Positions 9,687-57,080 of a stretch of DNA of 64,000 nt are shown here, one piece after another. The stretch is from a virus. Taxonomy: Duplodnaviria; Heunggongvirae; Uroviricota; Caudoviricetes; Straboviridae. The stretch is from IMG/VR virus record IMGVR_UViG_2974557979_000001; one strand, given 5' to 3'. Below the pieces are notes generated by a model that saw only the letters and a list, made by a program, of their open reading frames with translations, made no database searches and was not told where the DNA came from. Within the stretch, counting starts at the first letter, position 1. Every line of letters begins with the position of its first letter. A program made the translations under genes and the position numbers.

Positions 9687-9687
9687 T

Positions 9688-10329: not shown

Positions 10330-10344
10330 TAGCACTTTTTGTTA

Positions 10345-20228: not shown

Positions 20229-20299
20229 AATGTATTCCTCATTGTTTTCGATAGAACCAATATAGCAAAAAGCCCCGACCGAAGTCAAGGGCTTTTTCA
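20229..20299 (-). promoter_or_regulatory. PeSL-like cassette (minus strand)
   Basis: Minus strand reads AAAAAGCCCTTGACTTCGGTCGGGGCTTTTTGCTATATTGGTTCTATCGAAAACAATGAGG; the same hairpin recurs at 37270. Confidence 0.5.
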
Positions 20300-25968: not shown

Positions 25969-26014
25969 GGTATGTTCCTTTTGTCAGTTTCGTTTCAACA
26001 AGGACACTATACTA

Positions 26015-26938
26015 TTATTCTTTAGCCTGTGCAAGCGCTTTTTTGATTTGTTTTGCGATTGCTTCGATCACCGGAACAGATACAGAGTTACCCGCTTGTT
26101 TGTACGCCTGTGTTTTGCTCTTATGCATCTTGAATGAATCCGGAAATCCTTGCAACCGGAAACACTCGCGAGGTGATAACATTCGAGGGTTCTTACCTTC
26201 CTGTAATACCAGACATTGAACACCATCCTTATAGTATTGGGCTGTTATCGTCCCAGTACACACAGAATCAACTGTAACGGCCTGATAGCCAAACCCCTTG
26301 CCGTTTGCCTTGTTTCGCTCTTTACGCTCTCTAAAGCCCTTCCAGGCACGATCTGATATGGTGTATTGATCATTATCCGGTTCGAGAATGTCACCTACCC
26401 TTGTTGGGGTACGTGGAGGAACAGGAAAACTAAAGAATACCGGATCGCGAAAGCAGACAATAAACACACGCTCTCTTCGTTGAGGCAATCCAAAATCTTT
26501 TGTATTCATTACCTGATAATGGATATCGTACCCTTCGTCCTGTAACAGCCTGTAGATGGTTTTAAACGTGTTTCCCTTGTCATGTGTTAATAGCTGGGGA
26601 ACATTCTCAAAGAACAGCACAGAGGGCTTTTTAGCCCGTATAATGCGGAGTATTTCAAAGATGATAGTACCGCGAGGATCTAACATGCCCTGTTTTAACC
26701 CTGCTTTACTGAACGCCTGACAAGGAAACCCCGCCAACAGGATATCGTGATCAGGTACGTCGTTTTCATCAATGGCGAATATATCACCCTGAATATTTTC
26801 ATCACCCCAGTTATCAGCATATGTTTGTTGTGCATGTTTATCGATTTCAGACGTTAAAAGGCATTCGACCCCGCCGAATGCCTTATCGAAACCGAGCCTC
26901 ACGCCACCAACACCAGCGCAAAGGTCAATTATTTTCAT
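26015..26938 (-). CDS. DNA (cytosine-5)-methyltransferase
   Basis: C5-MTase motifs I DLCAGVGG, IV FPCQAFS, VI ENV, VIII QRRERVF, X AGNSVSVPV. Confidence 0.9.
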   Translation of the reverse strand: MKIIDLCAGVGGVRLGFDKAFGGVECLLTSEIDKHAQQTYADNWGDENIQGDIFAIDENDVPDHDILLAGFPCQAFSKAGLKQGMLDPRGTIIFEILRIIRAKKPSVLFFENVPQLLTHDKGNTFKTIYRLLQDEGYDIHYQVMNTKDFGLPQRRERVFIVCFRDPVFFSFPVPPRTPTRVGDILEPDNDQYTISDRAWKGFRERKERNKANGKGFGYQAVTVDSVCTGTITAQYYKDGVQCLVLQEGKNPRMLSPRECFRLQGFPDSFKMHKSKTQAYKQAGNSVSVPVIEAIAKQIKKALAQAKE

Positions 26939-27437: not shown

Positions 27438-28441
27438 TTGTAGTACCTCACAACATGTTCAGAATACACACGTTCAATGAAATCATTCCAGAAATCGCGA
27501 TCAACTTCTTTCGGATAACCAGATACAGCCGCCAGCTTTTCAACTTCACACATCGTTGATTCTAGCGCCTCTTGTACGGTTGCGAAAGGAACACCGCCAG
27601 CTTTAACCATTTTCAAAAATGCACTATCCGGAAGAGGATATACAATATCACCTTCTTTGAAAATCTGGATCAATTGCATACCACCGCGCAACGCATGAGA
27701 AAGAGCTTTCCAGTCGATCCCGTTGTTGGCTTCTGCTTGCCGTGCTCGTTCCCCGTATTCATCCCAGAGTTTATACACGGATTTTTTCATTTCCGCTACG
27801 GTGATCGTAGACTGGAATTTACGCCCCAGAACTTCATAAAATTCCTGACAACCTGATTTCAGTGTTTTGTCTGTAACGAATCGACAAAACTCGTTGGTCG
27901 GGAATCGGTTAGAAACCTCACCAACTTTGATGCGCTTGCCGTAGTTAGATTCATCTACGTTACCCAGCAATGATGTACCATACCAGTAATCGGGAATCAT
28001 TTGTAACACATCAACAACTTCACGCAGTGCCGCCAGGCGAGAACCTTTAACGCCATACTTCGCCGCTTGCTTACGAACATAACCAAACAGGCCAGTTAGT
28101 TCCGTAGTGTAGAAGCGTGAACGGTTAGCGCGGAGATATTGCCAGATATCAGAGTTAGCGATCAGTTTGCTATCATCTGCATGAAGCATATCAATCGCCA
28201 CGGTGTCACCATCACATGCGAGGCTAATAAACTTTTGCAGACTGTAAATCTGACGATCTACGTCATTAACACCGTTCTTTGAGTTTTTATCGCCAGTTGA
28301 TGTATCAATAGACTTCTTCGCAGTACCTAACAGGATTTCGCGAGGATGAGGGAGATAGATCCCTTTGTAGTCTTTATCGCTTGTTGGTGTTTCCAGTCCG
28401 TACAGGTGAGAACCAAATACGGTTTCCATAATCATTTTCAT
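27434..28441 (-). CDS. Pol-beta superfamily nucleotidyltransferase (unknown specificity)
   Basis: N-terminal FGSHLYGLETPTSDKDYKGIY = GS-x9-DxD NTase signature; later VAIDMLH provides a third acidic residue; C-terminal helical domain. Confidence 0.6.
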   Translation of the reverse strand: MKMIMETVFGSHLYGLETPTSDKDYKGIYLPHPREILLGTAKKSIDTSTGDKNSKNGVNDVDRQIYSLQKFISLACDGDTVAIDMLHADDSKLIANSDIWQYLRANRSRFYTTELTGLFGYVRKQAAKYGVKGSRLAALREVVDVLQMIPDYWYGTSLLGNVDESNYGKRIKVGEVSNRFPTNEFCRFVTDKTLKSGCQEFYEVLGRKFQSTITVAEMKKSVYKLWDEYGERARQAEANNGIDWKALSHALRGGMQLIQIFKEGDIVYPLPDSAFLKMVKAGGVPFATVQEALESTMCEVEKLAAVSGYPKEVDRDFWNDFIERVYSEHVVRYYK

Positions 28442-28818
28442 CAGAATTCAACCTTTAATGTTTTTGCAATCCCGCGCAATTCAGCGGTAGTAATATCAGG
28501 GATGTTTGTTCCGTAGCTGTTCCCAAATACCTTTTTAATCTTATCACACAAATCGCGGCGGTACACCATTTCTTTATATTCTTCTTCGCTGCGATATAGT
28601 TGATAACCCATCCAACCATCAGCCCACCCGTTATTGCGCTTGATTTTAATATTGGAACAGCAATCAGGCCCATCTTCCGGTCGAAAAGATGCATACAGGT
28701 ACTGACGCGCAACTTTTTGTACGTAAAGGGTTTTGGGGTTGCGATTTTGTCGCTGGTCACTACGGATCCCAGCATCATACAACGTATCACCAACTTTCAC
28801 ATCACTTAAATCAATCAT
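28441..28818 (-). CDS. hypothetical protein with VKVGD motif
   Basis: VKVGDTLYDAG at the N-terminus; the motif repeats twice in the gene at 29039..29650. Confidence 0.45.
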   Translation of the reverse strand: MIDLSDVKVGDTLYDAGIRSDQRQNRNPKTLYVQKVARQYLYASFRPEDGPDCCSNIKIKRNNGWADGWMGYQLYRSEEEYKEMVYRRDLCDKIKKVFGNSYGTNIPDITTAELRGIAKTLKVEF

Positions 28819-29919: not shown

Positions 29920-30176
29920 TTAAATTCTTCCATTGCATAGGAAGTAAGATCTTTGAAATACCTTGCGGTGTTGCCTTCTGGGTTGTTTGTAATCTCCATC
30001 AGGATAACAGCACTATCAACTCCTGCTTTCTTAGCCATGAATGAAAGGGCTTCGGTAGCAATAATCGTTGCTTTCATAACATCAGCTTTAGAAACGTTGA
30101 TTGTATTCATTTTTTCTTCCTTTTCATTAATCACTTGGTATGTGTGTATAATACAAAAGCCCTCACGAGAACGCAA
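29916..30176 (-). CDS. hypothetical protein
   Basis: ORF. Confidence 0.4.
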   Translation of the reverse strand: MRSREGFCIIHTYQVINEKEEKMNTINVSKADVMKATIIATEALSFMAKKAGVDSAVILMEITNNPEGNTARYFKDLTSYAMEEFK

Positions 30177-30284
30177 GGGCTTTTTATTAAATTTCGTATA
30201 AATCTGGATTCACAATAACCGCACATAAAAGATCATCTATATGTGCGGCTTCTTGTTCTAAGGTTTGCTTAGATGAATGTGCTT

Positions 30285-31358: not shown

Positions 31359-31522
31359 GTTTAAAGGTTAATCATAAAACAGACGCAATTATCAACACAC
31401 CAAACAATCCACCAATGAAACCAAAGAATAGTGAAATGAGTATAGTCAGTACGATCTGTTTTATGTTCATTATAGTATTCTCGTTTTAGATGTCAAGCCC
31501 CCAAAGAGGGGGCTTTAAAACA

Positions 31523-36896: not shown

Positions 36897-37242
36897 ACAC
36901 AGTATCCGAACTTGTAATGACAGTGTACACGGTTTCTTTCACAAGATCCATGATTTTCTGTGATTCTCCCCAGACATTGATACTAAAATAAATCCCATTT
37001 TTAGGAATAGGATTGTATTCCATATCATAATACATATCCATGAGTTCACAAATGAACAGGCGGCGCTGTTCGTTATCATATGTGAAATAAATGTTAAAAC
37101 AATCGAGAGATTTACTCAAAGTAATCTCTTTGATAACGATGTTGTCTTGTTTGCTAAAATGATCGCGGATTGCTTGCACACAACGCAACAGGTTAGGGTA
37201 ATCATATTTTTGTGAAACAATGACTTGATGTGAAACGCTCAT
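36847..37242 (-). CDS. hypothetical protein
   Basis: ORF downstream of a PeSL-like cassette. Confidence 0.45.
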   Translation of the reverse strand: MSVSHQVIVSQKYDYPNLLRCVQAIRDHFSKQDNIVIKEITLSKSLDCFNIYFTYDNEQRRLFICELMDMYYDMEYNPIPKNGIYFSINVWGESQKIMDLVKETVYTVITSSDTVYERPNDAYESRFTLVK

Positions 37243-37310
37243 AATGTATTCCTCTCAATTAGATGCACTCATAATAAAAAAGCCCCCGACCGAAGTCAAG
37301 GGCTTTTTGT
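37243..37310 (-). promoter_or_regulatory. PeSL-like cassette (minus strand)
   Basis: Minus strand AAAAAGCCCTTGACTTCGGTCGGGGGCTTTTTT...GAGAGGAATACATTATG; hairpin identical to the one at 20262. Confidence 0.45.
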
Positions 37311-37951
37311 CAAATGATTTGTTTTTCTTCTAACAGCTTCGCGGTTGTATTAACCATACGAGCATAATCACGGGCTTCTTTCTTTGTATACTTGAAACCA
37401 GCGTTATAGCTCGCAAGCGCCTTTTTCAAGTCGCCTTTGTGGTAATCAAGCCAGTACTCCAGTTCATAGATCGCATACTTCGATCCACCTTGAAGAGTTT
37501 CGAGCTTTTTGATTACTACGCGTTTAGGATATGACTTATCCATTCGTGCGCTGGCGCTCCTTGCGGTAACTTGCCAGCATCCATAAGCGTGATGGCCTTT
37601 TTTACCTTTACCGACATTCTCACATGCGCGAGACTCGATCCAGACAATAGCCGCTAAATGATAGCCTAAACGTTTAGCCTTATCTTTTTCTACAGGTTTT
37701 GCAGTCTTCAAATCATAGTTGTGTCCAACTCGATAAGCATACTCCAAAACCTCTTTCTGCTTCGGTGTGATATTATCCAAATCCTTGATGTAGGATGGAG
37801 AATTTTTGTTTGCCGGAGGCTTCACAGTAGCCTTTTGTAAAGGCAATTGATGAGTAGGCAAATCCGCAATGAAATCCCCTAGCGGATCCGTCGCAGCGTT
37901 GCCAGAAAAAGAGCACAAGAAAATGCTGGCAGCAATAATAATTTTCTTCAT
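37310..37951 (-). CDS. secreted lytic transglycosylase (SLT domain)
   Basis: Signal peptide MKKIIIAASIFLCSFSGNA; SLT motifs IVWIESRA (catalytic ES), AYGCWQV, YNAG. Confidence 0.65.
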   Translation of the reverse strand: MKKIIIAASIFLCSFSGNAATDPLGDFIADLPTHQLPLQKATVKPPANKNSPSYIKDLDNITPKQKEVLEYAYRVGHNYDLKTAKPVEKDKAKRLGYHLAAIVWIESRACENVGKGKKGHHAYGCWQVTARSASARMDKSYPKRVVIKKLETLQGGSKYAIYELEYWLDYHKGDLKKALASYNAGFKYTKKEARDYARMVNTTAKLLEEKQII

Positions 37952-38785: not shown

Positions 38786-38815
38786 CTCACAAAAAGGGGG
38801 CTTTCGCCCCCATCA

Positions 38816-42428: not shown

Positions 42429-42467
42429 AATTTTACCTACAAAAAAGCCCCTTTCGGGGCTAGTTAA

Positions 42468-44654: not shown

Positions 44655-45913
44655 TTCAATTCCACCGCGTAAACATCAGGTTCAGGGGCTTTGTGTACGC
44701 GCATATCTTTACCGCATACCGCATAAGCCGGACAGTTACGACAACCGTTATGATCCTTATTACCGATCAGTTCATTACGGAACTGTTTGGTTTTCGGATG
44801 TTCCCAGATATCTTTGATAAAGTCGCTGGCTTCCAGGACGTTAAGCCCTTCTGACCATCCACCCTCGACCCAACGTTCGGTAAAGGAACAGGGGAAGAAT
44901 TCACCCTTTTCATTGATGTACGAACTAAACATAGTAGCTTCGCAATCTTCCGCATACTGTTTGTACTGTTCAAAATTTTCATGTCCTTCCATAGCCTCTA
45001 CAAAGGCCGGAGCGGAACAGGAATCAAAACCGAACCCTACACCAGATTCAAGGCAATACTCTACCAGAGCTTTATACTGCTCGCGTGTAACGGTATCCCA
45101 GTTCTTCCCACGACCTTTTTGTTTCAGACCCAGGAATACGATCGCGTTAACTTGTTTCAAGCGCGGATCATTCTTTACAGCATCAACCACGTTAAACGCG
45201 TCATCATAGGTTTTAGAGCTAACCATGAAATGAAGGTTGATTTGCTGTTGTCCGGCTTCTGCAAGATTAGCCACTGAATTAAACGCTACATCGAATCCAG
45301 CATGTTTGTATACTGATACCGCAACAGCCCCAGCAACAGCCGCTAAACGCGCTGCAACGTCTTTTGATACATCAGCAATGGTAAGGTTTGGTACAATGCC
45401 TTTAGAACGCGCATAGGCCATCATATCAAACATATCAGGGTTTGTTTGTCCCTGTGCATCAGCACCGAGGGCGCATTGTGTTAACCAGGGCATTTTATCA
45501 ATGATAGATTTGAATGTATCAAGATCCATATTGAAGCCGTTAGGGTTATTAGACTTGTAGCAGAAACCGCAAAGTTTACCAGCAGGGCCATTGCATTTAG
45601 TTGTGATCTCGATATCGAGAATTTCGGGGAATGGGGCATAGGTAGGATCAGTTTCGAACGATATTCCCCAGCGAGCAAACTCACCAGTTTTAACGTTGAA
45701 ATTGTAGTTATACCACTTAGAGCGAGCGTAACGGATATCACCATCTTGATATATGAACAGGGTAGGAGCTTTCAGAACAGTTTGTGCGTTATTCATAATA
45801 TAATTCTCAAAATCTAACATGGGATTGGAAGACAGCGCGAGCGAGACTTTCATTATCAAACGGTATTGATTGGTGTTGTCCTTTGCTATCAATGTTAACG
45901 CGCCAAAATTCAC
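44651..45913 (-). CDS. putative radical-SAM-like Fe-S enzyme (atypical cysteine spacing) with Cys-rich C-terminal domain
   Basis: ILDIEITTKCNGPAGKLCGFCY resembles the radical SAM strand-loop motif but with CX8CX2C spacing; C-terminal DSCSAP...PCSF...NGCRNCPAYAVCG is SPASM/twitch-like; start uncertain. Confidence 0.45.
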   Translation of the reverse strand: MNFGALTLIAKDNTNQYRLIMKVSLALSSNPMLDFENYIMNNAQTVLKAPTLFIYQDGDIRYARSKWYNYNFNVKTGEFARWGISFETDPTYAPFPEILDIEITTKCNGPAGKLCGFCYKSNNPNGFNMDLDTFKSIIDKMPWLTQCALGADAQGQTNPDMFDMMAYARSKGIVPNLTIADVSKDVAARLAAVAGAVAVSVYKHAGFDVAFNSVANLAEAGQQQINLHFMVSSKTYDDAFNVVDAVKNDPRLKQVNAIVFLGLKQKGRGKNWDTVTREQYKALVEYCLESGVGFGFDSCSAPAFVEAMEGHENFEQYKQYAEDCEATMFSSYINEKGEFFPCSFTERWVEGGWSEGLNVLEASDFIKDIWEHPKTKQFRNELIGNKDHNGCRNCPAYAVCGKDMRVHKAPEPDVYAVELK

Positions 45914-46009
45914 TAGAACAATTTTCAGTGGAGTAGTTCAACAGCGTTACCGTTTTATTCTTTTCCAAAAATACGCGTTTGTCAATCTCTGTTTTGATTA
46001 CGTGTTCCA

Positions 46010-46267
46010 TCATTTTACCCACCGTTGTTTGCGTTCGTCAGCCAGTTCTTTTTTGTACACCTTGATGTATTCGCCGTTCAAGGCACGGAGATTTGAAAAT
46101 ACACGATTGAAAAGATTTTTCTTTTCTTTGTATGCCGGAGACATACGGATCGATTCAATAGTCATACCCATTTCATTTTTAGGATACGCTCGTAACTCTG
46201 CGCCGATCTCATCAATCCATTTTTGGTACAAATCACGCTTTTCTTTGTACTGCTCAAAAGTCAACAT
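46010..46267 (-). CDS. hypothetical protein
   Basis: ORF. Confidence 0.4.
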   Translation of the reverse strand: MLTFEQYKEKRDLYQKWIDEIGAELRAYPKNEMGMTIESIRMSPAYKEKKNLFNRVFSNLRALNGEYIKVYKKELADERKQRWVK

Positions 46268-46493
46268 ATAATTTCCTCACATTTCGTTGGGTTCAATATA
46301 ACCCTATAAAGAACCAAACGCAAGAGTTATTTGTACTTCATAAAGAATTTAACTGCTTCTTCCGGTGTCATATCGTCAGAGAACAACCCGAAGAAAGTAC
46401 GATGATGATCTTTGTACGAAATGTTAAGTGGGTTCAATAAACATCTAACCTCTTCAACCCATTGATAGTATTTTTTGCTGAATGGTTGATCTC

Positions 46494-46833: not shown

Positions 46834-47084
46834 TCATTTTATACGTACCGCGTTAAAAGCCTGGTTCCGGAGATCATACGCTTTTTCAAGCTGTTCTGTA
46901 GTGAACAGAGGACTATCAGAGTTTACTGTGAAACTGCAAATGGTTTTGTTGTCGGCGTTTACTTCTTCAACAACGATTTCATAACCCCAGATCCCGCTGT
47001 ACTCACATTTCACGTTCCGGTACTTGATGTAAACTGCTACAACATCTTCTTTTTTGTAGTTCCGGCTTTTGTAGATAATTTCCA
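46834..47084 (-). CDS. hypothetical protein
   Basis: Start set to MEIIYK after RBS GGAGGA; the track ORF extends into translated leader. Confidence 0.45.
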
Positions 47085-47135
47085 TGATATCCTCCTTCGT
47101 TTCGATGTGTGTATAATAACAGATCGGGGTTATCG
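47085..47135 (-). promoter_or_regulatory. PeSL-like promoter/leader (minus strand)
   Basis: Minus strand TATTATACACACATCGAAACGAAGGAGG. Confidence 0.4.
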
Positions 47136-47155
47136 ATTTTAGCAATTCGTGCTAA

Positions 47156-47434
47156 TTATGCCATTTTCTTAGCGATTTTCCAGGCGGCTTTGAATGCCGG
47201 AACATCTTCAATATCAACCCAGAAACCAGCACCAAAACCATCATCGTAGCAAGGGCAACCGTCGCAGTAATTTTCCCAGGTCATCACTTCACCACCAACA
47301 GAAGCACCAGTTTCCATAGCGCGTAACGCATCTTCAACTTTTTCCAGTTTTTCTGCGTTGTTGTCATAAATGATGAAGTACCATTTTCCGTTGTATTCGT
47401 TACCCAGTTTGATTGCTTCGCGAACAAGTTTCAT
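47156..47434 (-). CDS. hypothetical protein
   Basis: Start set to MKLVREAIKL. Confidence 0.45.
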   Translation of the reverse strand: MKLVREAIKLGNEYNGKWYFIIYDNNAEKLEKVEDALRAMETGASVGGEVMTWENYCDGCPCYDDGFGAGFWVDIEDVPAFKAAWKIAKKMA

Positions 47435-47503
47435 GATGATTTCCTTTTTGTCTGTTTCGTTTCGATGTATGTAAGATACCACAACCAGATTTTAATGCAA
47501 CAT
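47435..47503 (-). promoter_or_regulatory. PeSL-like promoter/leader (minus strand)
   Basis: Minus strand TTGCAT-16-TATCTT then ACATACATCGAAACGAAACAGAC. Confidence 0.45.
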
Positions 47504-47836
47504 TTATTTTGCTTCGAGTTCGATATTTTTCCATGTTTTCATCGGAACCCCTATCGCATCCCAAAACTTAACATCTTCTGCTGCAATCAGAGTAAAGAAG
47601 ACTCCAGTTTTCCAGTATTTCCCGTTTCTGATTTCGTTTGCGATCTCGTTCAACTGGTCGCAAAAATGTTCAGTCCAACTAACATCACCATCCCAGCGAG
47701 AACGTGGATTGTATAGAGAAAATATGAAACTATCAATATAAGAAGATTTTCCGGTAGAGACTCCCATCAAAACAGCCAGGATTGTGCGAACTGCATATAA
47801 ATTCTGAACCTCAACACTTCTCGTTTTAATAGTCAT
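47504..47836 (-). CDS. hypothetical protein
   Basis: Start set to MTIKTRSV after RBS GAGGAA. Confidence 0.45.
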   Translation of the reverse strand: MTIKTRSVEVQNLYAVRTILAVLMGVSTGKSSYIDSFIFSLYNPRSRWDGDVSWTEHFCDQLNEIANEIRNGKYWKTGVFFTLIAAEDVKFWDAIGVPMKTWKNIELEAK

Positions 47837-47914
47837 TTCATGATTCCTCTGTTTTGTTTCGATGAATGCAATATAACAAAACCCCTCACCATTGGCAAGG
47901 GGTTTTTGCAAAAA
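47837..47914 (-). promoter_or_regulatory. PeSL cassette (minus strand)
   Basis: Minus strand GCAAAAACCCCTTGCCAATGGTGAGGGGTTTTGTTATATTGCATTCATCGAAACAAAACAGAGG: hairpin with TTGCCA-17-TATATT. Confidence 0.55.
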
Positions 47915-48172
47915 TTATCGTTTGATTGGGGTATTATCTATAACCCGTTGAATTTCCGAACGCATCGTAGAATACTGGCACAATTCAGTAAGCGCCCGAT
48001 CCAGGTGCATCATAGCGTAAGAAAACTCTTTTCCGCATTTGTCGCATCTAGCGTATAAATGTAAATGAATTCGCCCGATCCCATCTACCTGACTATATTT
48101 CTGGAATATGTAAGGATCTGCACCTCGATAGCCAGTAGCTTCGTGCTTACACTCTCGTTTGAACCATGACAT
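47915..48172 (-). CDS. hypothetical Cys-containing protein
   Basis: CKHE...CDKCGKEF. Confidence 0.4.
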   Translation of the reverse strand: MSWFKRECKHEATGYRGADPYIFQKYSQVDGIGRIHLHLYARCDKCGKEFSYAMMHLDRALTELCQYSTMRSEIQRVIDNTPIKR

Positions 48173-48746
48173 TAATAATATCCTTGTACGTTGAATCGGT
48201 CACACAACAATTTTTTGTTTGGTTAGTATCGTTTTGGATAGAATGCAACATAGCGGTAATCATGTTTAGGTTATTTTGCATCATTTCCGCGCTCATGAGA
48301 ACTTCCATACGCGCACGTAAGCGTTTATTTTCTTCTTCCAACTCAACCATACGGTCATATGCTTTGATGCGCTCTAAGGGCATATCAGGACGCTCTTTGA
48401 GTACGCGAGCACGTTCAACCTCACAAGCATGATTTGCTTTCCAGTGGTTCGATTCCGCTTCAAATTTATTAAGACGGCGGATCTCTTCAACCAGCTTTTT
48501 GATCATGTGTGGATCCATCATGTCGATGAATTTCATCAAACAATTGGATTTTGTTTTGTTGTCAGCACCAGACCAAGACGAATTATACGTAACTGTAAAC
48601 GCGCGGCCCATTTCATCAACAACCCCGATCTTGTTATCATCGGTGATTGTAGCCGCCCATTTCTCCCGCATGGCTGTACAGGTTCCGCTGGCGACATTAT
48701 GCAACTTGTTTAATGTCGCATCATCAAATACAATTTCATCACTCAT
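48147..48746 (-). CDS. hypothetical protein
   Basis: ORF. Confidence 0.45.
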   Translation of the reverse strand: MSDEIVFDDATLNKLHNVASGTCTAMREKWAATITDDNKIGVVDEMGRAFTVTYNSSWSGADNKTKSNCLMKFIDMMDPHMIKKLVEEIRRLNKFEAESNHWKANHACEVERARVLKERPDMPLERIKAYDRMVELEEENKRLRARMEVLMSAEMMQNNLNMITAMLHSIQNDTNQTKNCCVTDSTYKDIINVMVQTRV

Positions 48747-48753
48747 ATATGCC

Positions 48754-49149
48754 TCACATAGATTTCAAAATACGCAGCAGCGCGTTAGTAAAGATATCAG
48801 GAACACAACAACCAAACAACTTATGATTCATCAGCGCTAATTTCATGCTGTGATTTTCGGTATATCGCCCGTTCTGGATCCCCCAGGCAACTACATGACC
48901 AGGTTCATGAATAACTAAGTTAGTGAGAGTAACGGTCATGCGCTCTTTATCATTGATCATGAATGAATAGCAGTAACCGGATCCAATATCGCCGTAAAGG
49001 TTAAGGTCTTTCAATTTCCCTTGCTCATGCAAGCGTTTCATATGAACTGCACATGCATGATTAATAGTCATTTCGTCATCCCTAGCCCAGTCATCAATAC
49101 CAGAGGTATAACGAATATTGAAATAGTTAGTCAGTTCATTTGATACGCT
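48754..49149 (-). CDS. putative zinc metallopeptidase-like protein (HExxH)
   Basis: VIHEPGHVVAW HExxH motif; start set to the internal Met MSVSNEL, which largely removes the overlap with the upstream zinc-finger gene. Confidence 0.45.
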   Translation of the reverse strand, partial: SVSNELTNYFNIRYTSGIDDWARDDEMTINHACAVHMKRLHEQGKLKDLNLYGDIGSGYCYSFMINDKERMTVTLTNLVIHEPGHVVAWGIQNGRYTENHSMKLALMNHKLFGCCVPDIFTNALLRILKSM

Positions 49150-49330
49150 CATTAGAAACCTCACTTTTATAAAATTCTTTACCAGACCCATTACAGCTAC
49201 TGCATTTGGGGGAACGGTTGTTATCATACCGCCCCGAACCGTTACATGCAACACATTTCCGTAATTTCCAGCCATACACGAACCTCATGTAATAATCGGT
49301 TCGTGCGGCCTTGCGTTCATGGAAATTCAT
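49136..49330 (-). CDS. DnaJ-type zinc-finger protein (CxxCxGxG x2)
   Basis: CVACNGSG ... CSSCNGSG; a second protein of this type is at 53231..53566. Confidence 0.4.
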   Translation of the reverse strand: MNFHERKAARTDYYMRFVYGWKLRKCVACNGSGRYDNNRSPKCSSCNGSGKEFYKSEVSNERIK

Positions 49331-49527
49331 GCTTTGTAAACCTGAACCAACCACATTTCGATGTTAGGCGCGTAAGTAACGTTTACCTTATGCATAGTGC
49401 GGTATTTGTAAGCGGCTTTGTACGCATCGAGTTCAGTCGGAACACAGAAAGAAAAACCGTTATCATAGCGTTCTGCGTTAGAAACTTCACAACCAACTAC
49501 AGCGGCAATGTTTTTATTCATGTTCAT
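49327..49527 (-). CDS. hypothetical protein
   Basis: Start set to MNMNKN after the leader. Confidence 0.4.
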   Translation of the reverse strand: MNMNKNIAAVVGCEVSNAERYDNGFSFCVPTELDAYKAAYKYRTMHKVNVTYAPNIEMWLVQVYKA

Positions 49528-49603
49528 GATATTTTCCTTTCTCTGTTTCGTTTCGATGTGTGTAATATAACAAAGCCCCTGCACTAATGCAAGGGCTTTT
49601 TGA
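49528..49603 (-). promoter_or_regulatory. PeSL cassette (minus strand)
   Basis: Minus strand CAAAAAGCCCTTGCATTAGTGCAGGGGCTTTGTTATATTACACACATCGAAACGAAACAGAGAAAGG: hairpin with TTGCAT-17-TATATT. Confidence 0.6.
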
Positions 49604-50518
49604 TTATTTTGGTAATTTTTCGATGGTTGCTTTCAACTCATTGATTTTATTAAAGAGTTCATCGCTATATTTCATCAACTCACTACGGCGTTTTTCGGCC
49701 CACTTGATCAGGAATTCATGAGAATCTACACCATACGTGTAACCTTCTGCACTCAGTTGAATACGAGCACGGGAACCATAATCAACAGAACTTTGTTCAA
49801 TGAGAAACTTAACCGCATCAAGCAGGGCTAAATCTTCATGACTTACCAATATTCCTTCTGCCTTTGGAAGATCCACAACTTCATCCTGGATGAGTTCACG
49901 GCGGGTTGTTTCTTCCAGTGTTTCATGATTCTGGATCATCGTTTCGACCGGATCCTTTGCCACGACTGGTTTATTTTCACCTACTTCTTCCAAAAACATC
50001 AACATCCATCCAGGAATTTTAGTCCGGAAAGAACTTTGTACTTCACTGGTGCATGAATTTCCCAGAATGTGGATCGCGTTACCATGCATATCAACTTTAT
50101 TGATATAGATAACGTTCTGCTGTTCCTGTCGGTTGCTACCATAAGAAAGGAAGCGGCGTAACGATGTGTTATGACCATACTTCCCTAAATCGATTTCAGC
50201 CAGGCAATCAATGATCCCACGGTTAGAAACCTTGTAACGCTTACCCTGTTTGAAAAATAACGATTCTTCCAGGTGAGTAGGGGTAAACTCTTCATAAAGA
50301 ACATAGAATTCTTTAGGAATTTTGCGCTGAACCAGACTCAGTTTACAATTATTAGAAGGAACAATAACAGCGTGAATGTTTCCTTCTGCGTCACACATAG
50401 CTTGCATTACTTGCGGATAGTAAAGATGGTCTTTCTTGCAAGTATAGCTATGGATACGACTCTGCCGTTTTTTGAAGTACCATTTACCAGTTTCAAAAGG
50501 CGCTGTTGTAAAATTCAT
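49604..50518 (-). CDS. hypothetical protein (304 aa)
   Basis: ORF. Confidence 0.5.
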   Translation of the reverse strand: MNFTTAPFETGKWYFKKRQSRIHSYTCKKDHLYYPQVMQAMCDAEGNIHAVIVPSNNCKLSLVQRKIPKEFYVLYEEFTPTHLEESLFFKQGKRYKVSNRGIIDCLAEIDLGKYGHNTSLRRFLSYGSNRQEQQNVIYINKVDMHGNAIHILGNSCTSEVQSSFRTKIPGWMLMFLEEVGENKPVVAKDPVETMIQNHETLEETTRRELIQDEVVDLPKAEGILVSHEDLALLDAVKFLIEQSSVDYGSRARIQLSAEGYTYGVDSHEFLIKWAEKRRSELMKYSDELFNKINELKATIEKLPK

Positions 50519-51042
50519 TTTGCATTCTCATACATAGTTAAAATTGCTTGCATATGTTCCGGTGATTGTGGAACCCCTGCAAAGTTCACTTTCAAAAAGA
50601 AATTCAACCGATCTTTTATGTTGCACTCATCGAGTCCAAGCGCTGGTAATGAAATGTTTTCAAAAGCACGTTGTTCATGTCTTTCCATTTCACCCCAAAA
50701 CAAACGGGAACCGTTAGGCATCGGTATTCCAATTTCATTGTTCCAGAATTTCATGATAGTTGTCAAGCGTTGTTTTCCGTCGATGACTTCTACCCATCGA
50801 GATTCGTTGAATTCACTATCAACCGCGATCGCAATGATACCACAAGGAAACCCAGTAATCAAAGTTTTCATGAAAGCATCTTGCTCTTTCTGCTTCCACA
50901 CGTAGGGCCGCTGATAGGACGGATTCAGATCCAGATCGTTGTTCTTGAACCAGTGAATGTAACTACCAACCATGATCGCATGATCGCGACTTTGGAAAGT
51001 TTTTAACTCACGAATACGGTTTCTTACAATTTCGTCTGTCAT
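50515..51042 (-). CDS. DUF262 / ParB-like nuclease-NTPase domain protein (standalone)
   Basis: SYQRPYVWKQKEQDAFMKTL...GFPCG...VIDGKQRLTTI carries the DGQQR-type signature of DUF262 (GmrSD N-domain family); no HNH/DUF1524 partner domain. Confidence 0.62.
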   Translation of the reverse strand: MTDEIVRNRIRELKTFQSRDHAIMVGSYIHWFKNNDLDLNPSYQRPYVWKQKEQDAFMKTLITGFPCGIIAIAVDSEFNESRWVEVIDGKQRLTTIMKFWNNEIGIPMPNGSRLFWGEMERHEQRAFENISLPALGLDECNIKDRLNFFLKVNFAGVPQSPEHMQAILTMYENAK

Positions 51043-51365
51043 TATAAAATCACCATCCAGTATATAATCGTAATCATAACCGCTACAGTGAAACATATTG
51101 CAGCGTACACCCGCGCATTATGAACCTGTGTTTTCAATTCTGCGATCTCTTGATCCTTTTCGCTTTCAAACTCTTCGCGAGTACCATAATACCCAGGATC
51201 GTTAGCAGTTGCCAATCTAACCGCATCTTTTTCAACCAGCGTTGCATAACCGCTTTTTATTTGTGTCGCCCCGTACCATCCACCCCGATCGTTGTTAATG
51301 ATCAGGTGATCGCCTTTTTCGTTATGTTTTGACTCACCAATTACAATAACCCGTTTACCATTCAT
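51042..51365 (-). CDS. hypothetical C-tail-anchored membrane protein
   Basis: C-terminal TM helix VYAAICFTVAVMITIIYWMVIL; ATGA overlap with the DUF262 gene. Confidence 0.45.
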   Translation of the reverse strand: MNGKRVIVIGESKHNEKGDHLIINNDRGGWYGATQIKSGYATLVEKDAVRLATANDPGYYGTREEFESEKDQEIAELKTQVHNARVYAAICFTVAVMITIIYWMVIL

Positions 51366-51393
51366 AATATGATCCTAAAAGGGGCCGAAGCCC

Positions 51394-51651
51394 CTATTTT
51401 GCGTTCTTCTGTAGATAATCTAACAGATTTCCGCTTTGGTGTAAATCTAAAACTTTAGAAAACTTCTCTGCGTTTCTTTCGTTTGTGAGTTCGTCGAAAT
51501 GCCATACACCATCATCAGCTATTAACGCGCCAGGTGATGAACCTGTTTCTACATCACGGGAAAGCGCAAGCCCCAGAGGGTGTAAGATTTCGCGGTTAAT
51601 GCGCCAAACAAGGCCCATTTCAGATAGAGTATTAAAATCGACGTATTTCAT
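51394..51651 (-). CDS. hypothetical protein
   Basis: ORF. Confidence 0.4.
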   Translation of the reverse strand: MKYVDFNTLSEMGLVWRINREILHPLGLALSRDVETGSSPGALIADDGVWHFDELTNERNAEKFSKVLDLHQSGNLLDYLQKNAK

Positions 51652-51652
51652 A

Positions 51653-52036
51653 TTATGCCTTTGGTTTCACACCGTAGGCCAACATACCGAAACGGTGATC
51701 GTTGTCTGCATCTTTAAACAGAACTTCGTTACCATCAATGCAGATAACCTTTGCTTCCGGATCGATGTATGGAAGCAACCACAAAGGGATCAGGCGTAGG
51801 CCGCTATGTTCATCCCAGCGACTGAAATTAAGTTCTTCCAGTTCATCAAGGGAAAGCTCATTAGGATCGATATAACGGAACCATTTGGTATTTTTGAGGC
51901 GTTCGGGGAATGTTACGATTTCTTCATAGCCGAATTCAGCACTCCATGAAGAGTAAACAGTGACTTCGGATGCTTTGGTTAAAACAGCATCGCGAATTGA
52001 TTTGCAGATATCGATTAAATTCAGTTGATTTTCCAT
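51653..52036 (-). CDS. hypothetical protein
   Basis: ORF. Confidence 0.45.
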   Translation of the reverse strand: MENQLNLIDICKSIRDAVLTKASEVTVYSSWSAEFGYEEIVTFPERLKNTKWFRYIDPNELSLDELEELNFSRWDEHSGLRLIPLWLLPYIDPEAKVICIDGNEVLFKDADNDHRFGMLAYGVKPKA

Positions 52037-52046
52037 GATATATTTC

Positions 52047-52454
52047 TCATCTTGCTAAAATTTTAGGCAACAGTTGCCCCATTGTTTTACGTGCATGTGA
52101 CGGAATCTGTGAGATCGGGACATATTTAAAATCATCCATTTCACGTATAGTCCGTCCGTTCTTAACGAAAGTTGATGCACAATAGCATTCTTCCGCTACT
52201 GGGTAATCTTGCCCTACATAGAGGAATAAAGCAAGGTTTTTTGTTTTCGTGTAATCGAGAACACCCAGACTAACCAATTCCTCCGCGAACACTTCAAATC
52301 CTGTTTCTTCGAAGCATTCGCGGATCGCCGCGTCAATATGAGTTTCGCCCTTTTCAACATGCCCCTTCGGAATATCCCAATGGGGCGTTTCAGTGGCATG
52401 GCCCATCAACACGGCACCATCTTTAACAAAGATAATACCCGCTGATAGTTCCAT
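52047..52454 (-). CDS. Nudix hydrolase
   Basis: Nudix box GHVEKGETHIDAAIRECFEETG. Confidence 0.8.
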   Translation of the reverse strand: MELSAGIIFVKDGAVLMGHATETPHWDIPKGHVEKGETHIDAAIRECFEETGFEVFAEELVSLGVLDYTKTKNLALFLYVGQDYPVAEECYCASTFVKNGRTIREMDDFKYVPISQIPSHARKTMGQLLPKILAR

Positions 52455-52700
52455 TTATTCACCTGCAAAAGCGTTATCAAATGCTTTAAGTGCGTTGTTA
52501 GCGCGAGCACTGGCTTTTGTCTCACCAGCATGAATGTTTTCGAAGAAAGTACGTTTCCACACTTCGCGGCGAATAGATTCATGTTCCAGACTGTTTTTGT
52601 GATCACTGCGAATCTGTTCTTCCATGTTGTAGCGGTACAGATCGAGTTCTGCGTTTAATTTCTGTTCTAATGCCTGTGCAAATACATGTTCAATATTCAT
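52455..52700 (-). CDS. hypothetical protein
   Basis: ORF. Confidence 0.4.
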   Translation of the reverse strand: MNIEHVFAQALEQKLNAELDLYRYNMEEQIRSDHKNSLEHESIRREVWKRTFFENIHAGETKASARANNALKAFDNAFAGE

Positions 52701-52948
52701 TTTGTATAGCCTATTTCAGATTTAAGGTTTTCGAGGGTGGAGTGATAAACAACACTCCCTTCGTGTCGAGTATACCATACTTTTCCGTTCTGGTTACACT
52801 CATTCATTACATTTTCATCTAAACCAGGGATCGGCTTCATGCTGGGAGAAAACGCGATAGACATCATTTGTTCTGCGCTATCAGCAAACCCACAAGGGAA
52901 AACAGATCCAGTTGGTTTATCAAGATACATCAACTCTACTTTAGCCAT
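52697..52948 (-). CDS. hypothetical protein
   Basis: Start set to MAKVELMYL. Confidence 0.4.
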   Translation of the reverse strand: MAKVELMYLDKPTGSVFPCGFADSAEQMMSIAFSPSMKPIPGLDENVMNECNQNGKVWYTRHEGSVVYHSTLENLKSEIGYTK

Positions 52949-53234
52949 AGATTTCTTCGAAATCCTCACAATCAGGCAAATACGTTTCACAGAAGGTGCA
53001 AAGCGTAAAGAATGCAGGTTGACGAATACCAGGATTATCCGGTAGATACATCCAGAAGGTGTTAGCAAACACGATGAATGTTTTCAGGTTTTCGGTGGTA
53101 ATTTCGCTAACACCATCATACCCGGATTGATTGATCGCGCGTTGCAGTGGCACCTCGTACTGTTCGCAATAGTCGGCATAATGATCGCTTGTTACAAGGC
53201 CATTAGCCATTTTAATCAAATCGACGATTTTCAT
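52941..53234 (-). CDS. hypothetical protein
   Basis: ORF. Confidence 0.45.
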   Translation of the reverse strand: MKIVDLIKMANGLVTSDHYADYCEQYEVPLQRAINQSGYDGVSEITTENLKTFIVFANTFWMYLPDNPGIRQPAFFTLCTFCETYLPDCEDFEEIYG

Positions 53235-53566
53235 GATTTTACATATTCCACTTTAACAGGTTTTGCAACAAATTTATCTTTGGTGCGCCCATGACCATTA
53301 CACAGGTCACATTCTTTGTTGAAATCTTTCATATCTTCGACCCATCCAGAATCTGGCAACCCAGACGGATATGCGTTATAACGAATGGTTTCATAACCTT
53401 TTCCGTTGCATTTCGGGCAAACATGAGGACGTTCTTTTTTAGCAGACTCTGCCAGTTCGCGAAGGGTGGTAGAACTACCATAAGCCCGACACATGTTTTC
53501 AAAGTCTTTTAAAGTCATTCTATAAACATCAATGACGTTATATTTTTTGCCGGATGGTTTAGCCAT
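53231..53566 (-). CDS. DnaJ-type zinc-finger protein (CxxCxGxG x2)
   Basis: CPKCNGKG ... CDLCNGHG; start set to MAKPSGKK. Confidence 0.45.
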   Translation of the reverse strand: MAKPSGKKYNVIDVYRMTLKDFENMCRAYGSSTTLRELAESAKKERPHVCPKCNGKGYETIRYNAYPSGLPDSGWVEDMKDFNKECDLCNGHGRTKDKFVAKPVKVEYVKS

Positions 53567-53806
53567 AATATATTTCTCACTTAAAGAATTTTTTGATGAA
53601 AGAGATAGCAAGGCCGATACCAAAGAAAATTAAGTAACCTTTTCCGTCACCGTGCGCCAAAACATAGAGTGAGCTGCCGTATGCGATGAGTTCTGCGATG
53701 TTCATTAAGTTTCTCATGATATCCTCCTTTTTCTATATTAAGTATCTTACCATAATATAAACCAAAGTCAACAACAAAGTTTTATCAACCCACTTATCAC
53801 CAGTCA

Positions 53807-53947
53807 TTAGTAATCCCCTACAGGTTGAGACGCCGCAACACTCAGGATCTTGAAAGTGCAATTGTTCCATTCACAATAAGTTTTTGCGCAATGAACACTT
53901 CCTTTCATAACAAACCCGTTTGAGAAAATTAACCAGTAAAGTTTCAT
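53807..53947 (-). CDS. small hydrophobic protein (46 aa)
   Basis: Start MKLYWLIF after RBS GGAGG; the track ORF includes translated leader. Confidence 0.3.
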   Translation of the reverse strand: MKLYWLIFSNGFVMKGSVHCAKTYCEWNNCTFKILSVAASQPVGDY

Positions 53948-54012
53948 GATAGCCTCCTTTGTTTCGACAAGGCCAATATAACAAAGCCCCTGCACGAATG
54001 CAAGGGCTTTTT
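53948..54012 (-). promoter_or_regulatory. PeSL cassette (minus strand)
   Basis: Minus strand GAAAAAAGCCCTTGCATTCGTGCAGGGGCTTTGTTATATTGGCCTTGTCGAAACAAAGGAGG. Confidence 0.55.
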
Positions 54013-54552
54013 TCAGTTTTTCAACATCCAAAGTTGCGGAGGACAATCTTTAGAAGCGATTAGACGATCCAGGCGGGACATAACCCGACGATAACCGTCG
54101 TATTCAAAATTAATTTTTGGTGGAACGTAGTTGACCTGGATTGTTTTTCTGTTAGCTAAAGAAACATACTCAGGGATCACCGTTCGTAACCGTATAGCGA
54201 TCACTGGCTTCTCTTCGCCTTCGTTAAAGAACATTTGAACAGTTATAGGACAAGCAAAGATTTTACCATTTACCCGACGATAAACAATAACTTCCTGTGT
54301 CCCTTCTGTTTTGGCCTTCACAGCGTAGGTTAGAACATAACACGAATAATGATTTGCTAGACTCATCATGATATCGCGATAAGTTTCAATATCTTTTTTA
54401 ATCGATACTGAACGGTCTTTAAAGCGATCTGAAATGTGGTCAGCAGTAGCCGCTACCTTGATTGTATACCAGTCACCTAACGCGCTAGTAAACGCCTCGC
54501 TAACTTCTTTTCGTACACTGTTAACAAGATACATTAAACGTGTTCTGTTCAT
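54013..54552 (-). CDS. hypothetical protein
   Basis: Start set to MNRTRLMYLV. Confidence 0.45.
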   Translation of the reverse strand: MNRTRLMYLVNSVRKEVSEAFTSALGDWYTIKVAATADHISDRFKDRSVSIKKDIETYRDIMMSLANHYSCYVLTYAVKAKTEGTQEVIVYRRVNGKIFACPITVQMFFNEGEEKPVIAIRLRTVIPEYVSLANRKTIQVNYVPPKINFEYDGYRRVMSRLDRLIASKDCPPQLWMLKN

Positions 54553-54559
54553 ATAATCC

Positions 54560-55183
54560 TCACTGATTTTTGAAGTATTCGATCTGACGCAAACGCTTTT
54601 CAGCGGCGGCTTTCGAATCGTATTCACCAAGTTCTTTTGTGCGATCGTGATTCAAAACAACCCACTTATCGCCACGCTGTTCAATGTGTTCTGTAATATC
54701 TTTTAACGACTTATCCAGATCCAGTGATTCAGCCTCTTCACAGATAATAGTCAAATCCACGGGCAGTGTCAACAACCTTTTCACTCCGCTGATATCATCA
54801 AGCATCGAATCGTATGCAAGGGTTACGTGCGGCTTGTAATCCGGATAATCGTATGTTGCGCCAGCATCAATAGAATCTTTGAAACGGCTATGCAGGTATT
54901 CAGATTCCAGGATCCCTACAATAGTGCTACCGTATTTTGTGTCCCACTTTTCAACATCAACCAGTTTAGCAGGTTCTGTGATGTCCTGTTGCGGGAACAA
55001 ATCAACCGTTTTCCGGCTGTATACGATCGTTGTATGCATCTTTTCGGCTGAAACAGCATTCTTTGTGATACCTAATGTCTTTTGAACATTTTTCAAAGCC
55101 TCACATGAAGCCTGATCGAATTTAGCACACATGTAGATACCAGGATCTACAACAGGTTTTGTGATTTCAAGAAATGATTTCAT
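54560..55183 (-). CDS. 57B: 2H phosphoesterase (Acb1/57B-like; LigT superfamily)
   Basis: Two H-x-T-x motifs (HTTIVYS and HVTLAYD) about 70 aa apart; gene sits next to 57A and gene 1 exactly as T4 57B/acb1 does. Confidence 0.6.
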   Translation of the reverse strand: MKSFLEITKPVVDPGIYMCAKFDQASCEALKNVQKTLGITKNAVSAEKMHTTIVYSRKTVDLFPQQDITEPAKLVDVEKWDTKYGSTIVGILESEYLHSRFKDSIDAGATYDYPDYKPHVTLAYDSMLDDISGVKRLLTLPVDLTIICEEAESLDLDKSLKDITEHIEQRGDKWVVLNHDRTKELGEYDSKAAAEKRLRQIEYFKNQ

Positions 55184-55234
55184 AAAACACCCCAATAAAA
55201 AAGGGGCCGTAGCCCCTTTGTAATAAATTTGTTT

Positions 55235-56760: not shown

Positions 56761-57080
56761 GGGAACGGGATCAAAGCGGCCTGACGGGGTAATATAAAAA
56801 TTTGAAGAAAATGCTTGACCTTTTAAAATCTTTGATCTATAATAATTATTAATTAAAATTTTATCAAAAAGATCTAACAAGATCAAGTAAAATTTAATAA
56901 ATAATTTATCAAAAAATTTTAGATCTGATCTTGAATTCATAAATTTTATGATCTATAATATATTAATATTTTATTTTATCATAAATTTTTATGAAGATCA
57001 ATACTTAGATCTAATAAATTTTATGCTTTTTCTGAAAACTTTTCCTTTACCCCGTCACTAAATACTGGTACTATGTTCCC
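56761..57080 (+). promoter_or_regulatory. AT-rich GATC-dense region with tandem consensus sigma70 promoters, flanked by inverted repeats
   Basis: IR GGGAAC...GACGGGGTAA (56761-56792) against TTACCCCGTC...GTTCCC (57047-57080); TTGACC-17-TATAAT at 56815-56843 and TTGAAT-17-TATAAT at 56931-56959; eight GATC in about 230 bp; repeated AAATTTTA and GATCTATAATA words. Confidence 0.55.

Follow-up and report, generated by a model that had tools for sequence, protein, structure and literature searches.

The 64,000-nucleotide stretch of viral DNA analysed here (IMG/VR record IMGVR_UViG_2974557979_000001; "the window" below) carries a family of repeated intergenic units, each of which brings together, in its full form, a stem-loop, a predicted sigma70 promoter and a conserved leader. 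According to our analysis these units are very probably cassettes of the promoter-early stem-loop (PeSL) type, that is, early promoter-terminator-leader elements that would form the boundaries of early transcription units and serve as a substrate for homologous recombination. A region of 7.1 kb matches Klebsiella phage Matisse (KT001918 / NC_028750; Straboviridae, Slopekvirus, T4-type) at 100% identity, and the window corresponds to positions 46703-110702 of the Matisse record. More than 100 sequenced phages have 95-99% identity over the region, and ~65 more, of the RB43 group (Pseudotevenvirus), 80-90%. A w before a coordinate marks a window position, and the whole 176-kb Matisse genome was assembled for the genome-wide motif search.

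The case is carried by the anatomy of the units, their copy number and distribution, the leader which they share with phages RB49 and KVP40, and recombination junctions lying inside cassette homology, all of them established by sequence comparison. For the Matisse cassettes we infer from these features that they would work as promoters and terminators, where transcription would start and why the leader may be conserved.

We propose that each intergenic unit of ~80-90 bp acts as a self-contained boundary between early transcription units. Transcripts arriving from upstream would be terminated or attenuated at its GC-rich hairpin, which has an A-tract on one side and a T-tract on the other, and the same DNA would be a host sigma70 promoter, with the A-tract at the proximal UP subsite, the -35 in the stem-loop and the T-tract as spacer. 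Transcription would start at the purine 7 nt past the -10, early mRNAs would begin 5'-(A/G)U(C/U)GAAAC..., and the Shine-Dalgarno sequence (SD) and ATG would follow 21-32 nt later. Since the cassettes are near-identical direct repeats of 30-90 bp placed before unrelated small genes, phage homologous recombination can cross over between copies. Such a crossover, within one genome or between co-infecting relatives, may delete, insert or swap "leader-gene(s)-promoter" modules and would leave the expression of the neighbours intact.

Anatomy, number and position of the cassettes

An nhmmer profile was built from ten sites listed in an initial annotation of this DNA, all of which are present at the positions and in the orientation it gave; 13 cassettes were found in the window and ~21 in the 176-kb genome (genome-wide cut-off E<1e-4). 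Beyond the listed ten, the window holds three more copies, with ATG at 25966, at 30108 and, in a weak copy, at 46265. A covariance model (CM) of hairpin and promoter finds 14 copies genome-wide, every one on the sense strand. Every cassette is intergenic and oriented toward the gene downstream. In the Matisse record the cassettes lie at 4-26 kb, 56-101 kb, 157 kb and 174 kb, and the genome-wide profile search found none in the late structural block (103-143 kb, 40 kb). Most genes downstream of cassettes have no Pfam family. The cassettes are elements of the early and accessory regions that stand in front of ORFans, as PeSLs do.

The leader core of 18 nt has 5 matches at <=3 mismatches, where 0.06 are expected, and the hairpin of 30 nt occurs 2 times against an expectation of 0. 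The pattern "-10 hexamer, 6 nt, RTYGAAA" is matched 10 times (1.44 expected; 0/100 shuffles reached 10).

Read from 5' to 3', a full cassette consists of an AT-rich lead-in with an upstream stop codon, an A-tract (A5 in w49525-49614) and a stem of 12-13 bp, with the -35 (TTGCAT, TTGACT or TTGCCA) sitting in the 5' arm and loop of the GC hairpin; the 3' arm, a T-tract, usually a TGn, the -10 and a 6-nt discriminator ending in a pyrimidine come next. The cassette ends in (A/G)T(C/T)GAAAC(G/A)AAAC..., followed by the SD and the start codon, and the predicted 5' untranslated regions are 21-32 nt long. TTGnnn is found at 16-18 bp from TAnnnT in 10/13 window copies and TGn in 8/13; three box-type copies, so called after an upstream box described below, are without a -35 at this spacing. 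The spacer, originally described as 17 bp, ranges over 16-18 bp, and the -10 hexamers TATATT and TATAGT are joined by TATTAT and TATCTT.

A GC hairpin bearing the -35 had been ascribed to all ten listed sites and is present at seven of them. Sites 10962, 47085 and 47435 are hairpinless (-0.3 to -6 kcal/mol), while the folding energies of the hairpins are -16 to -20 kcal/mol, z lying between -4.3 and -6.5. In total, 8/13 window copies and 14/~21 genome copies have the hairpin, and the five hairpinless window copies correspond to the published "degraded" PeSL class. The hairpins at 20262 and 37270, described as reused verbatim, are one G apart (GGGG vs GGGGG), with the first 25 nt identical. Across Matisse and ten relatives ~25 hairpin sequences occur, with the stem kept. 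After CM realignment the covariation is modest (16 compensatory cells, 0/500 shuffles as high, slid controls lower), and the case for the hairpin therefore rests on the folding energies. Three hairpin cassettes are the best terminator-like sites in 20 kb. A stem of 12-13 bp followed by UUUGUUAUAUU or UUUUUGC has the form of an intrinsic terminator, so that we predict termination here, and the Matisse GenBank record annotates the cassette hairpins as terminators.

The leader had been described as conserved at the listed sites. Its full 18 nt are present in 5 sites and a shorter core, in fixed register, in 9; the copy at 37243 is without it.

The copies in the window, together with the module between two of them that is inserted or deleted as a whole (the gene-172 indel), are as follows.

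53945-54025, minus strand: full cassette upstream of gene 189 (CM 61.2 bits); hairpin AAAGCCCTTGCATTCGTGCAGGGGCTTT at 53983-54010 holds the -35 TTGCAT (-19.3 kcal/mol, z -5.4) and ranks among the top terminator-like sites; TGn and -10 TATATT at 53975-53980; predicted +1 G at 53968 (GTCGAAAC); SD AGGAGG; ATG 53947-53945.
49525-49614, minus strand: full cassette, the best copy (nhmmer E 3e-20), upstream of gene 177; hairpin 49572-49601; -10 TATATT 49564-49569; predicted +1 A at 49557; leader ATCGAAACGAAACAGAG; ATG 49527-49525; orthologue kept in RB43 and EkoM5VN.
47834-47920, minus strand: left partner of the gene-172 indel, a full cassette in front of that gene; hairpin AAAACCCCTTGCCAATGGTGAGGGGTTTT at 47878-47906 (-18.9 kcal/mol); -10 at 47870-47875; predicted +1 A at 47863.
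47486-47848, minus strand: indel module made of leader, gene 172 (47504-47836, 110 aa) and hairpinless promoter.
47432-47523, minus strand: right partner of the gene-172 indel, a hairpinless cassette (-0.3 kcal/mol) in front of gene 171 (DUF5417); -35 TTGCAT, 16-bp spacer, TGG and TATCTT at 47473-47478; predicted +1 A at 47466; leader ATCGAAACGAAACAGAC.
47083-47163, minus strand: box-type cassette upstream of gene 170, kept in Miller and EkoM5VN; box TTAGCACGAATTGCTAAAA, 21 bp, TGT and TATTAT at 47113-47118; predicted +1 A at 47106; leader ATCGAAACGAAGGAGG; without canonical -35 and without GC hairpin.
46265-46345, minus strand: weak, degenerate cassette upstream of gene 166 (nhmmer E 0.027); TTGCGT, 17 bp, TATATT, AACGAAAT.
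37240-37321, minus strand: hairpin cassette without leader core (-20.2 kcal/mol); its SD-ATG box GAGGAATACATTATGAGCG recurs 390 bp downstream.
30108-30198, minus strand: hairpin cassette (-19.4 kcal/mol, z -6.5); AAAAAGCCCTTGCGTTCTCGTGAGGGCTTTT, TATTAT; leader diverges past ACACACAT.
25966-26056, minus strand: hairpinless cassette; TTGCAC, 17 bp, TATAGT, GTTGAAACGAAACTGAC.
20226-20309, minus strand: hairpin cassette; TTGACT in the hairpin, TATATT, ATCGAAAAC; SD-ATG box identical to that of the copy at 37240.
9674-9762, plus strand: hairpin cassette directly 3' of the DNA ligase gene; 16-bp spacer; leader core begins 4 nt past the -10, vs 6 elsewhere.
10333-10420, plus strand: cassette with box and hairpin; TAATAGCACTTTTTGTTAAA, then hairpin and -35; box to -10 (TATAGT) 33 bp; leader at 10390-10406, where both the w10403-10994 indel and a replacement in phage KP15 have their left junction.
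10954-11044, plus strand: box-only cassette, right junction of the w10403-10994 indel; TAATAGCACTTTTTGCTAAAAC, 22 bp, TGG and TATAGT, then ATCGAAACGAAACAGAC.

Further start sites are predicted at the purines w37264, 30141, 25999, 20252, 11011 and 10390.

Besides the cassettes, the window contains plain GC hairpins with a T-tract and without a -35, at 38796-38811, 42446-42461, 51380-51395, 55200-55219 and 31500-31520. The one near 31500 lies directly upstream of a near-perfect TTGACA-N16-TATAAT promoter and may be another PeSL subclass.

Kinship with published PeSLs

The PeSLs of RB49 and phi1 (Krischvirus) are repeated intergenic composites of ~100 bp whose stem-loop may overlap the -35 or the -10 (Arbiol 2010, PMC2839356). 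They are concentrated in hyperplastic regions before ORFans, and recombination between copies deletes or inserts ORFans (PMC2839356); the crossovers of RB49 mini-circles were mapped experimentally to the zone from -10 to ATG. With these elements the Matisse cassettes have in common the AT-rich lead-in with an upstream stop, sigma70 -35 and -10, the GC stem-loop, and SD and ATG; dozens of copies before ORFans, in hyperplastic regions; the collapse to one chimera where an ORFan flanked by two copies is inserted or deleted; crossovers between the -10 and the ATG; and the leader core CAT(A)CCGAAACGA after the -10. In the hyperplastic region of RB49 (ORFs 185-233) PeSLs carry the same leader directly after the -10, for instance ...ATAATGcacccATACCGAAACGAAAGGAG and ...AGATACtcccATCGAAACGAAACAAAGGAG, and nhmmer matches to RB49 PeSLs reach down to E 1e-5.

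There are differences as well. Unlike in RB49, the stem-loop of Matisse engulfs the -35 and is flanked by the A-tract and T-tract of an intrinsic terminator, the -10 is TATATT or TATAGT with TGn, and a subset of copies has the extra upstream box. For RB49 PeSLs promoter activity, terminator activity and mini-circles were demonstrated; the first two are predicted for the Matisse cassettes.

PeSLs have also been described in T4/PST and KVP40/nt-1 (Comeau 2014, PMC4122927). The nt-1 consensus of that study, a stem-loop A3-4G3-loop-C3T3-4 with -35 TTGYVH, matches the Matisse design, and its degraded "half" PeSLs are like the hairpinless Matisse copies. KVP40 and nt-1 differ in having a Vibrio host and belonging to a remote genus, and the leader is not discussed as a conserved element in PMC4122927. 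In our comparison KVP40 copies read GGGTTGCttcgGCAACCC-TTTTT-TATTAT-agctaCATCGAAACGAGATAC. KVP40 (IMGVR_UViG_638277085_000001; positions 2292 and 13117 of two stretches) and an nt-1-like contig have promoters followed by CATCGAAACGA(G/A)A, as do other long viral contigs; one KVP40 copy and one other long viral contig have the hairpin around the -35. These contigs came from a scan of IMG/VR with a 14-base pattern, which gave mostly lone chance matches and was informative only for long T4-like, KVP40 and nt-1-like contigs. The leader is therefore far older, or wider-spread, than the enterobacterial T4-like phages, and the comparison shows that it is shared by the published PeSL lineages, where it was previously not discussed as such.

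Closer to Matisse, several cassette copies per genome are found in RB43, RB16, Miller, GAP161 and others, and RB43, Miller and EkoM5VN hold orthologous as well as additional copies. A motif search across the genome and its relatives had been proposed as the way to check the initial annotation, with a leader not conserved in relatives as one of the refuting outcomes; the search gives ~21 copies in Matisse, and the leader is kept in relatives. The match with PeSLs that the annotation had drawn is likewise borne out by the composite build, the many early and accessory copies, the leader in common with RB49 and the indel junctions in cassette homology. In every feature open to comparison by sequence the repeats agree with PeSLs, which supports their assignment to PeSL-type cassettes.

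Lambdoid morons are a further likeness, each being a small accessory gene with its own promoter and terminator; unlike the cassettes, the ends of a moron lack conserved repeats and are not regarded as mediating its insertion.

Junctions in cassette homology and competing explanations

For recombination we aligned the window at 35.5-57.5 kb with eight Slopekviruses and at 6-36 kb with three, a total of 51 kb. The segment w47486-47848 (gene 172 and one promoter) is absent in 6/6 informative close relatives, with flanks overlapping by 34-36 bp. The lone cassette of these six relatives is a chimera, made of the left Matisse hairpin and the leader, SD and ATG of the right copy. Of ~181 related phage records 55 contain the gene-172 module, and both genera are represented among them; in Pseudotevenvirus, EkoM5VN has the same two-cassette layout around gene 172, and RB43 and Miller have the collapsed form. 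Gene 172 itself (47504-47836, minus strand) is called "head protein" in RefSeq and in several Pharokka-annotated relatives, a label that looks doubtful because it is a patchy 110-aa early-region open reading frame (ORF) without a Pfam family.

The second locus, w10403-10994, comprises three small genes and one cassette and is missing from phT4A, with an overlap of 31 bp, and from ALF. These two phages differ in their crossover points, which shows the events to be independent, and a replacement in KP15 begins in the same leader as the left junction. At the third, w36848-37237, one gene between SD-ATG boxes is absent in 5/8 relatives via the 19-bp box repeat (overlap 17-19 bp). A replacement of genes 167-169 (w46268-46834) has the weak cassette at w46265 as its left breakpoint. 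Altogether there are three loci with overlaps of 17-36 bp and two replacements anchored in cassettes. When breakpoints are pooled, 7/~43 distinct ones fall into cassette footprints, which make up 2% of the sequence (P = 2e-5).

ALF, phT4A and Kiwi also have HNH or homing-endonuclease genes inserted at window 26036, 45622-46028, 7075 and 28441-28814. One of these, an HNH gene of 527 bp in ALF and phT4A, lies directly 5' of the -35 of the 25966 cassette (w26036), and its ORF ends inside the -35.

A number of observations weigh against our reading of the units as shuffling cassettes. The hairpin is missing in 5/13 window copies and a usable -35 in 3/13. Orthologous leaders of Slopekvirus and Pseudotevenvirus have 82-98% identity and the flanking coding sequence 83-96%, which is no extra conservation. 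Generic counts show no excess over shuffles, with 57 vs 49 promoter-like and 23 vs 17 terminator-like sites. No Slopekvirus transcriptome turned up in the literature that we searched. Most indels in the 51 kb are located at cassette-free gene boundaries (ATGA overlaps) or within genes; insertions of 150 bp and 256 bp at ATGA gene overlaps and the homing-endonuclease insertions bypass the cassettes. So do deletions of 6.4 kb in KLB1 (w44877-51231) and 8.7 kb in KMI9 (w45176-53893), which end inside the radical-SAM gene and inside gene 180 or 189, with a 14-bp microhomology in KLB1. Against the null of "any gene junction" the breakpoints of region 1 are not significant (4/15 vs 14% expected, P = 0.15).

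An intragenic deletion of 69 bp used no cassette either, and cassettes account for a minority of the plasticity. As KMI9 has deleted nearly the whole cassette region, this region (~20 genes) is dispensable for growth on its isolation host. The initial annotation had the cassettes partition the accessory region and bound its variable genes, and this stands for the several indels that lie in cassettes; most of the indels lie elsewhere, and gene 171 (DUF5417) is kept across two genera.

The lack of a significant excess over the gene-junction null in region 1, the preponderance of cassette-free and intragenic indels and the retention of the cassette-bounded gene 171 are what one would expect if the units were ordinary early promoters and terminators, made alike by selection for the host consensus, with recombination incidental and no special role in shuffling. 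We regard this explanation as improbable, though it survives better than the others. The copies agree well beyond the consensus elements, since they also have in common the discriminator ACACAC, the upstream box, the 18-nt leader and the SD-ATG boxes. Junctions fall within this extra homology at no fewer than three loci, one of them with two independent crossovers, and the extra sequence is common to the PeSLs of RB49, whose recombination has been demonstrated by experiment. Scanning the window for a generic -35/-10 pair gave 153 matches, which was too noisy to use. The composite profiles (nhmmer, CM) were informative where the generic promoter and terminator scans were not, and only the composite stands out.

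What the leader does is a separate matter. Its core starts 6 nt past the -10, in fixed register, while the ATG follows at a variable distance of 21-32 nt, and its 8-mer is not enriched away from promoters over the whole window (22 vs 15). Because of these three properties we would assign the leader to transcription initiation, or to the mRNA 5' end, rather than to the ribosome-binding site. Between the two genera it is no more conserved than its flanks, so selection is deduced from the paralogues and the distant phages instead: the leader recurs before unrelated genes and in phages as remote as RB49 and vibriophage KVP40. We prefer to see in it a conserved initial transcribed sequence, presumably the 5' end of strong early transcripts, which would secondarily provide recombination homology.

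The T7 early promoters A1 and A3 offer a parallel as strong early promoters of the host RNA polymerase. Their annotated starts, cc|ATCGAGAGG and cac|ATGAAACGACAG, lie 7 nt past the -10, and the transcript starts ATCGAGAGG and ATGAAACGACAG resemble ATCGAAACGAAACAG. The likeness is short and may be convergent, and unlike the Matisse cassettes A1 and A3 are single-copy, without a joined terminator hairpin and with no part in module shuffling.

The annotation had also suggested that the leader is an RNA operator or processing site, and an element acting mainly at the RNA level could be an operator of a RegA-like repressor, a context for RegB cleavage or a translational enhancer. The leader has a high A content and would by prediction be part of the transcript, the SD contains GGAG in about half of the copies, and Matisse encodes a RegA homologue. 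The leader variants GATACACTTTAAGGAG (Matisse 174191, RB49, KVP40) resemble the T7 gene-10 enhancer with its SD, which we count in favour of this idea. Its odds are nevertheless slim, slightly below those of ordinary promoters, since the register fixed to the -10, the variable distance to the ATG and the lack of 8-mer enrichment all speak against it. An Rfam scan of the entire window had as its sole match a tRNA, so that no curated RNA family covers the cassettes, and no RegB domain was present in the two candidate proteins scanned. The operator and processing proposal is left without support. The tRNA gene lies at window 3251-3324 on the plus strand.

It is very unlikely that the cassettes are middle promoters of the MotA type, as the orthologous sites are labelled in the KP15 record (GU295964: "putative middle promoter; discovered using MEME", overlapping a "putative terminator"). 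The TGn extended -10 of most copies would tolerate lost -35 recognition, and some copies contain TTGCATTA, which differs from TGCTTTA at a single position. A Mot box has the form (a/t)(a/t)(a/t)TGCTTtA, is centred at -30, replaces the -35 and lies 11-13 bp from the -10, whereas the cassettes have TTGACA-like -35 hexamers at 16-18 bp, and copies such as TTGACTTC and TTGCCAAT are unlike a Mot box. RB43 and RB49 have no MotA and no middle promoters (Nolan 2006), and the KP15 paper offers no experiment in support of the label. A tblastn search of Matisse with a T4 AsiA sequence found no match, which is a weak negative. For a group reported to be without MotA the KP15 label appears unfounded, and this database entry should be corrected.

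Equally improbable are dedicated site-specific recombination sites of the integron attC kind, or mobile repeats such as repetitive extragenic palindromes (REP) or miniature inverted-repeat transposable elements (MITE): the layout of gene cassette and repeat is integron-like, an analogy made in Arbiol 2010, and the hairpins are conserved, but the crossovers vary in position (-10 and leader, T-tract further 5', SD-ATG box), which fits homologous rather than site-specific recombination, no integrase is found among the genome annotations, and the copies are co-oriented with genes and shaped by function.

The upstream box and the accessory genes

The box mentioned above, ATAGCAC-N5-TG(C/T)TAAA (sequence ATAGCACTTTTTGTTAAAAC), opens five Matisse cassettes, where 0.43 are expected. 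In the window it is found at 10331-10350, 10963-10984 and 47135-47153 (minus strand), and the others are at positions 10084 and 10439 of the Matisse record. It is an inverted repeat, TAGCA-N5-TG(C/T)TA, in which the C/T position of the arm still permits a G-U pair on the sense strand. From TTG(C/T)TA of the box to the -10 there are 21-22 nt in hairpinless copies and 33 nt in those with a hairpin, one helical turn apart. A sigma32-type -10 (CCCCAT), an NAD-capping context and a site for CRP, Fis, IHF or OxyR were considered for the box and rejected by inspection.

An intergenic repeat of 21 bases, aaATAGCACnnnTTGnTAAAA, has been reported in phage TLS in 18 copies, ~76 nt upstream of start codons, with its function left open (PMC11447400). 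The Matisse box matches the T1-like aaATAGCACnnnTTGnTAAAA consensus and is likewise intergenic and directed along transcription. With a 36-nt query (-10 and leader) 750 phage records were matched, many of them T1-like siphoviruses. In T1-like phages the box is followed by the same extended -10 and a CATCGAAACGAAAC leader; BEK12B, NBD2 and NJS2 have the box, ~22 nt, a TGn extended -10 and then CCATCGAAACGAAAC. NBD2 has at least 8 units of box and extended -10, five with a CATCGAAACGAA leader and the rest diverged. The leader (A/G)TCGAAACGA recurs in Krischvirus, Pseudotevenvirus, Slopekvirus, KVP40 and Drexlerviridae, and resembles the T7 A1/A3 starts.

The T1-like repeat (TLS, T1, Rtp) differs from the Matisse units in that it has been described only in Drexlerviridae and its copies are without a -35-bearing hairpin. 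The published account connected it neither with a -10 and leader further downstream nor with the PeSLs of T4-type phages, and our literature searches found no paper linking it to PeSLs. The link may stem from a regulatory cassette that spread horizontally, or else from convergence on the machinery of the host. We may tentatively suggest, without holding it to be likely, that the cassette is a cross-family module, the box belonging to a non-canonical promoter class served by a host or phage factor and the leader being a selected 5' signal of early mRNAs. If true, this would answer the question of the TLS authors about their repeat, whose function becomes directly testable as a promoter part.

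Among the genes of the region are those for the Acb1 anti-CBASS protein (window 54560-55183, minus strand, E 2e-47), a GmrSD_N/DUF262 domain protein (50515-51042, minus strand), a NUDIX hydrolase labelled RppH in some relatives (52047-52454, minus strand) and the DUF5417 protein of gene 171 (47156-47434, minus strand); most other genes of the region have no Pfam family. The AT-rich intergenic region at window 56780-57060, which separates the early block on the minus strand from the late genes on the plus strand, contains a duplication of ~115 bp, each copy with a near-consensus promoter (CTTGACC/CTTGAAT, N17, TATAAT). There a GATC overlaps the -10, AGATCT/TGATC motifs are many, and inverted repeats of 42 nt flank the region, which may be a divergent control region or an origin.

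Our analysis extends PeSLs to a fourth T4-type genus, Slopekvirus, in which the cassettes had not been named as such; our searches of the literature for PeSLs in KP15-like phages were negative. What we consider moderately new is the shared leader with its tie to the start site, the direct evidence of junctions in Slopekvirus and the link to the T1-like repeat. The cassettes map the likely early units of Matisse and of ~180 sequenced KP15-like and RB43-like phages, many of which are therapy candidates against Klebsiella. Recombination inside the cassettes adds small accessory genes to, or removes them from, phages that are otherwise near-identical, and the genes near these cassettes include the Acb1 anti-CBASS gene and the GmrSD-like gene.

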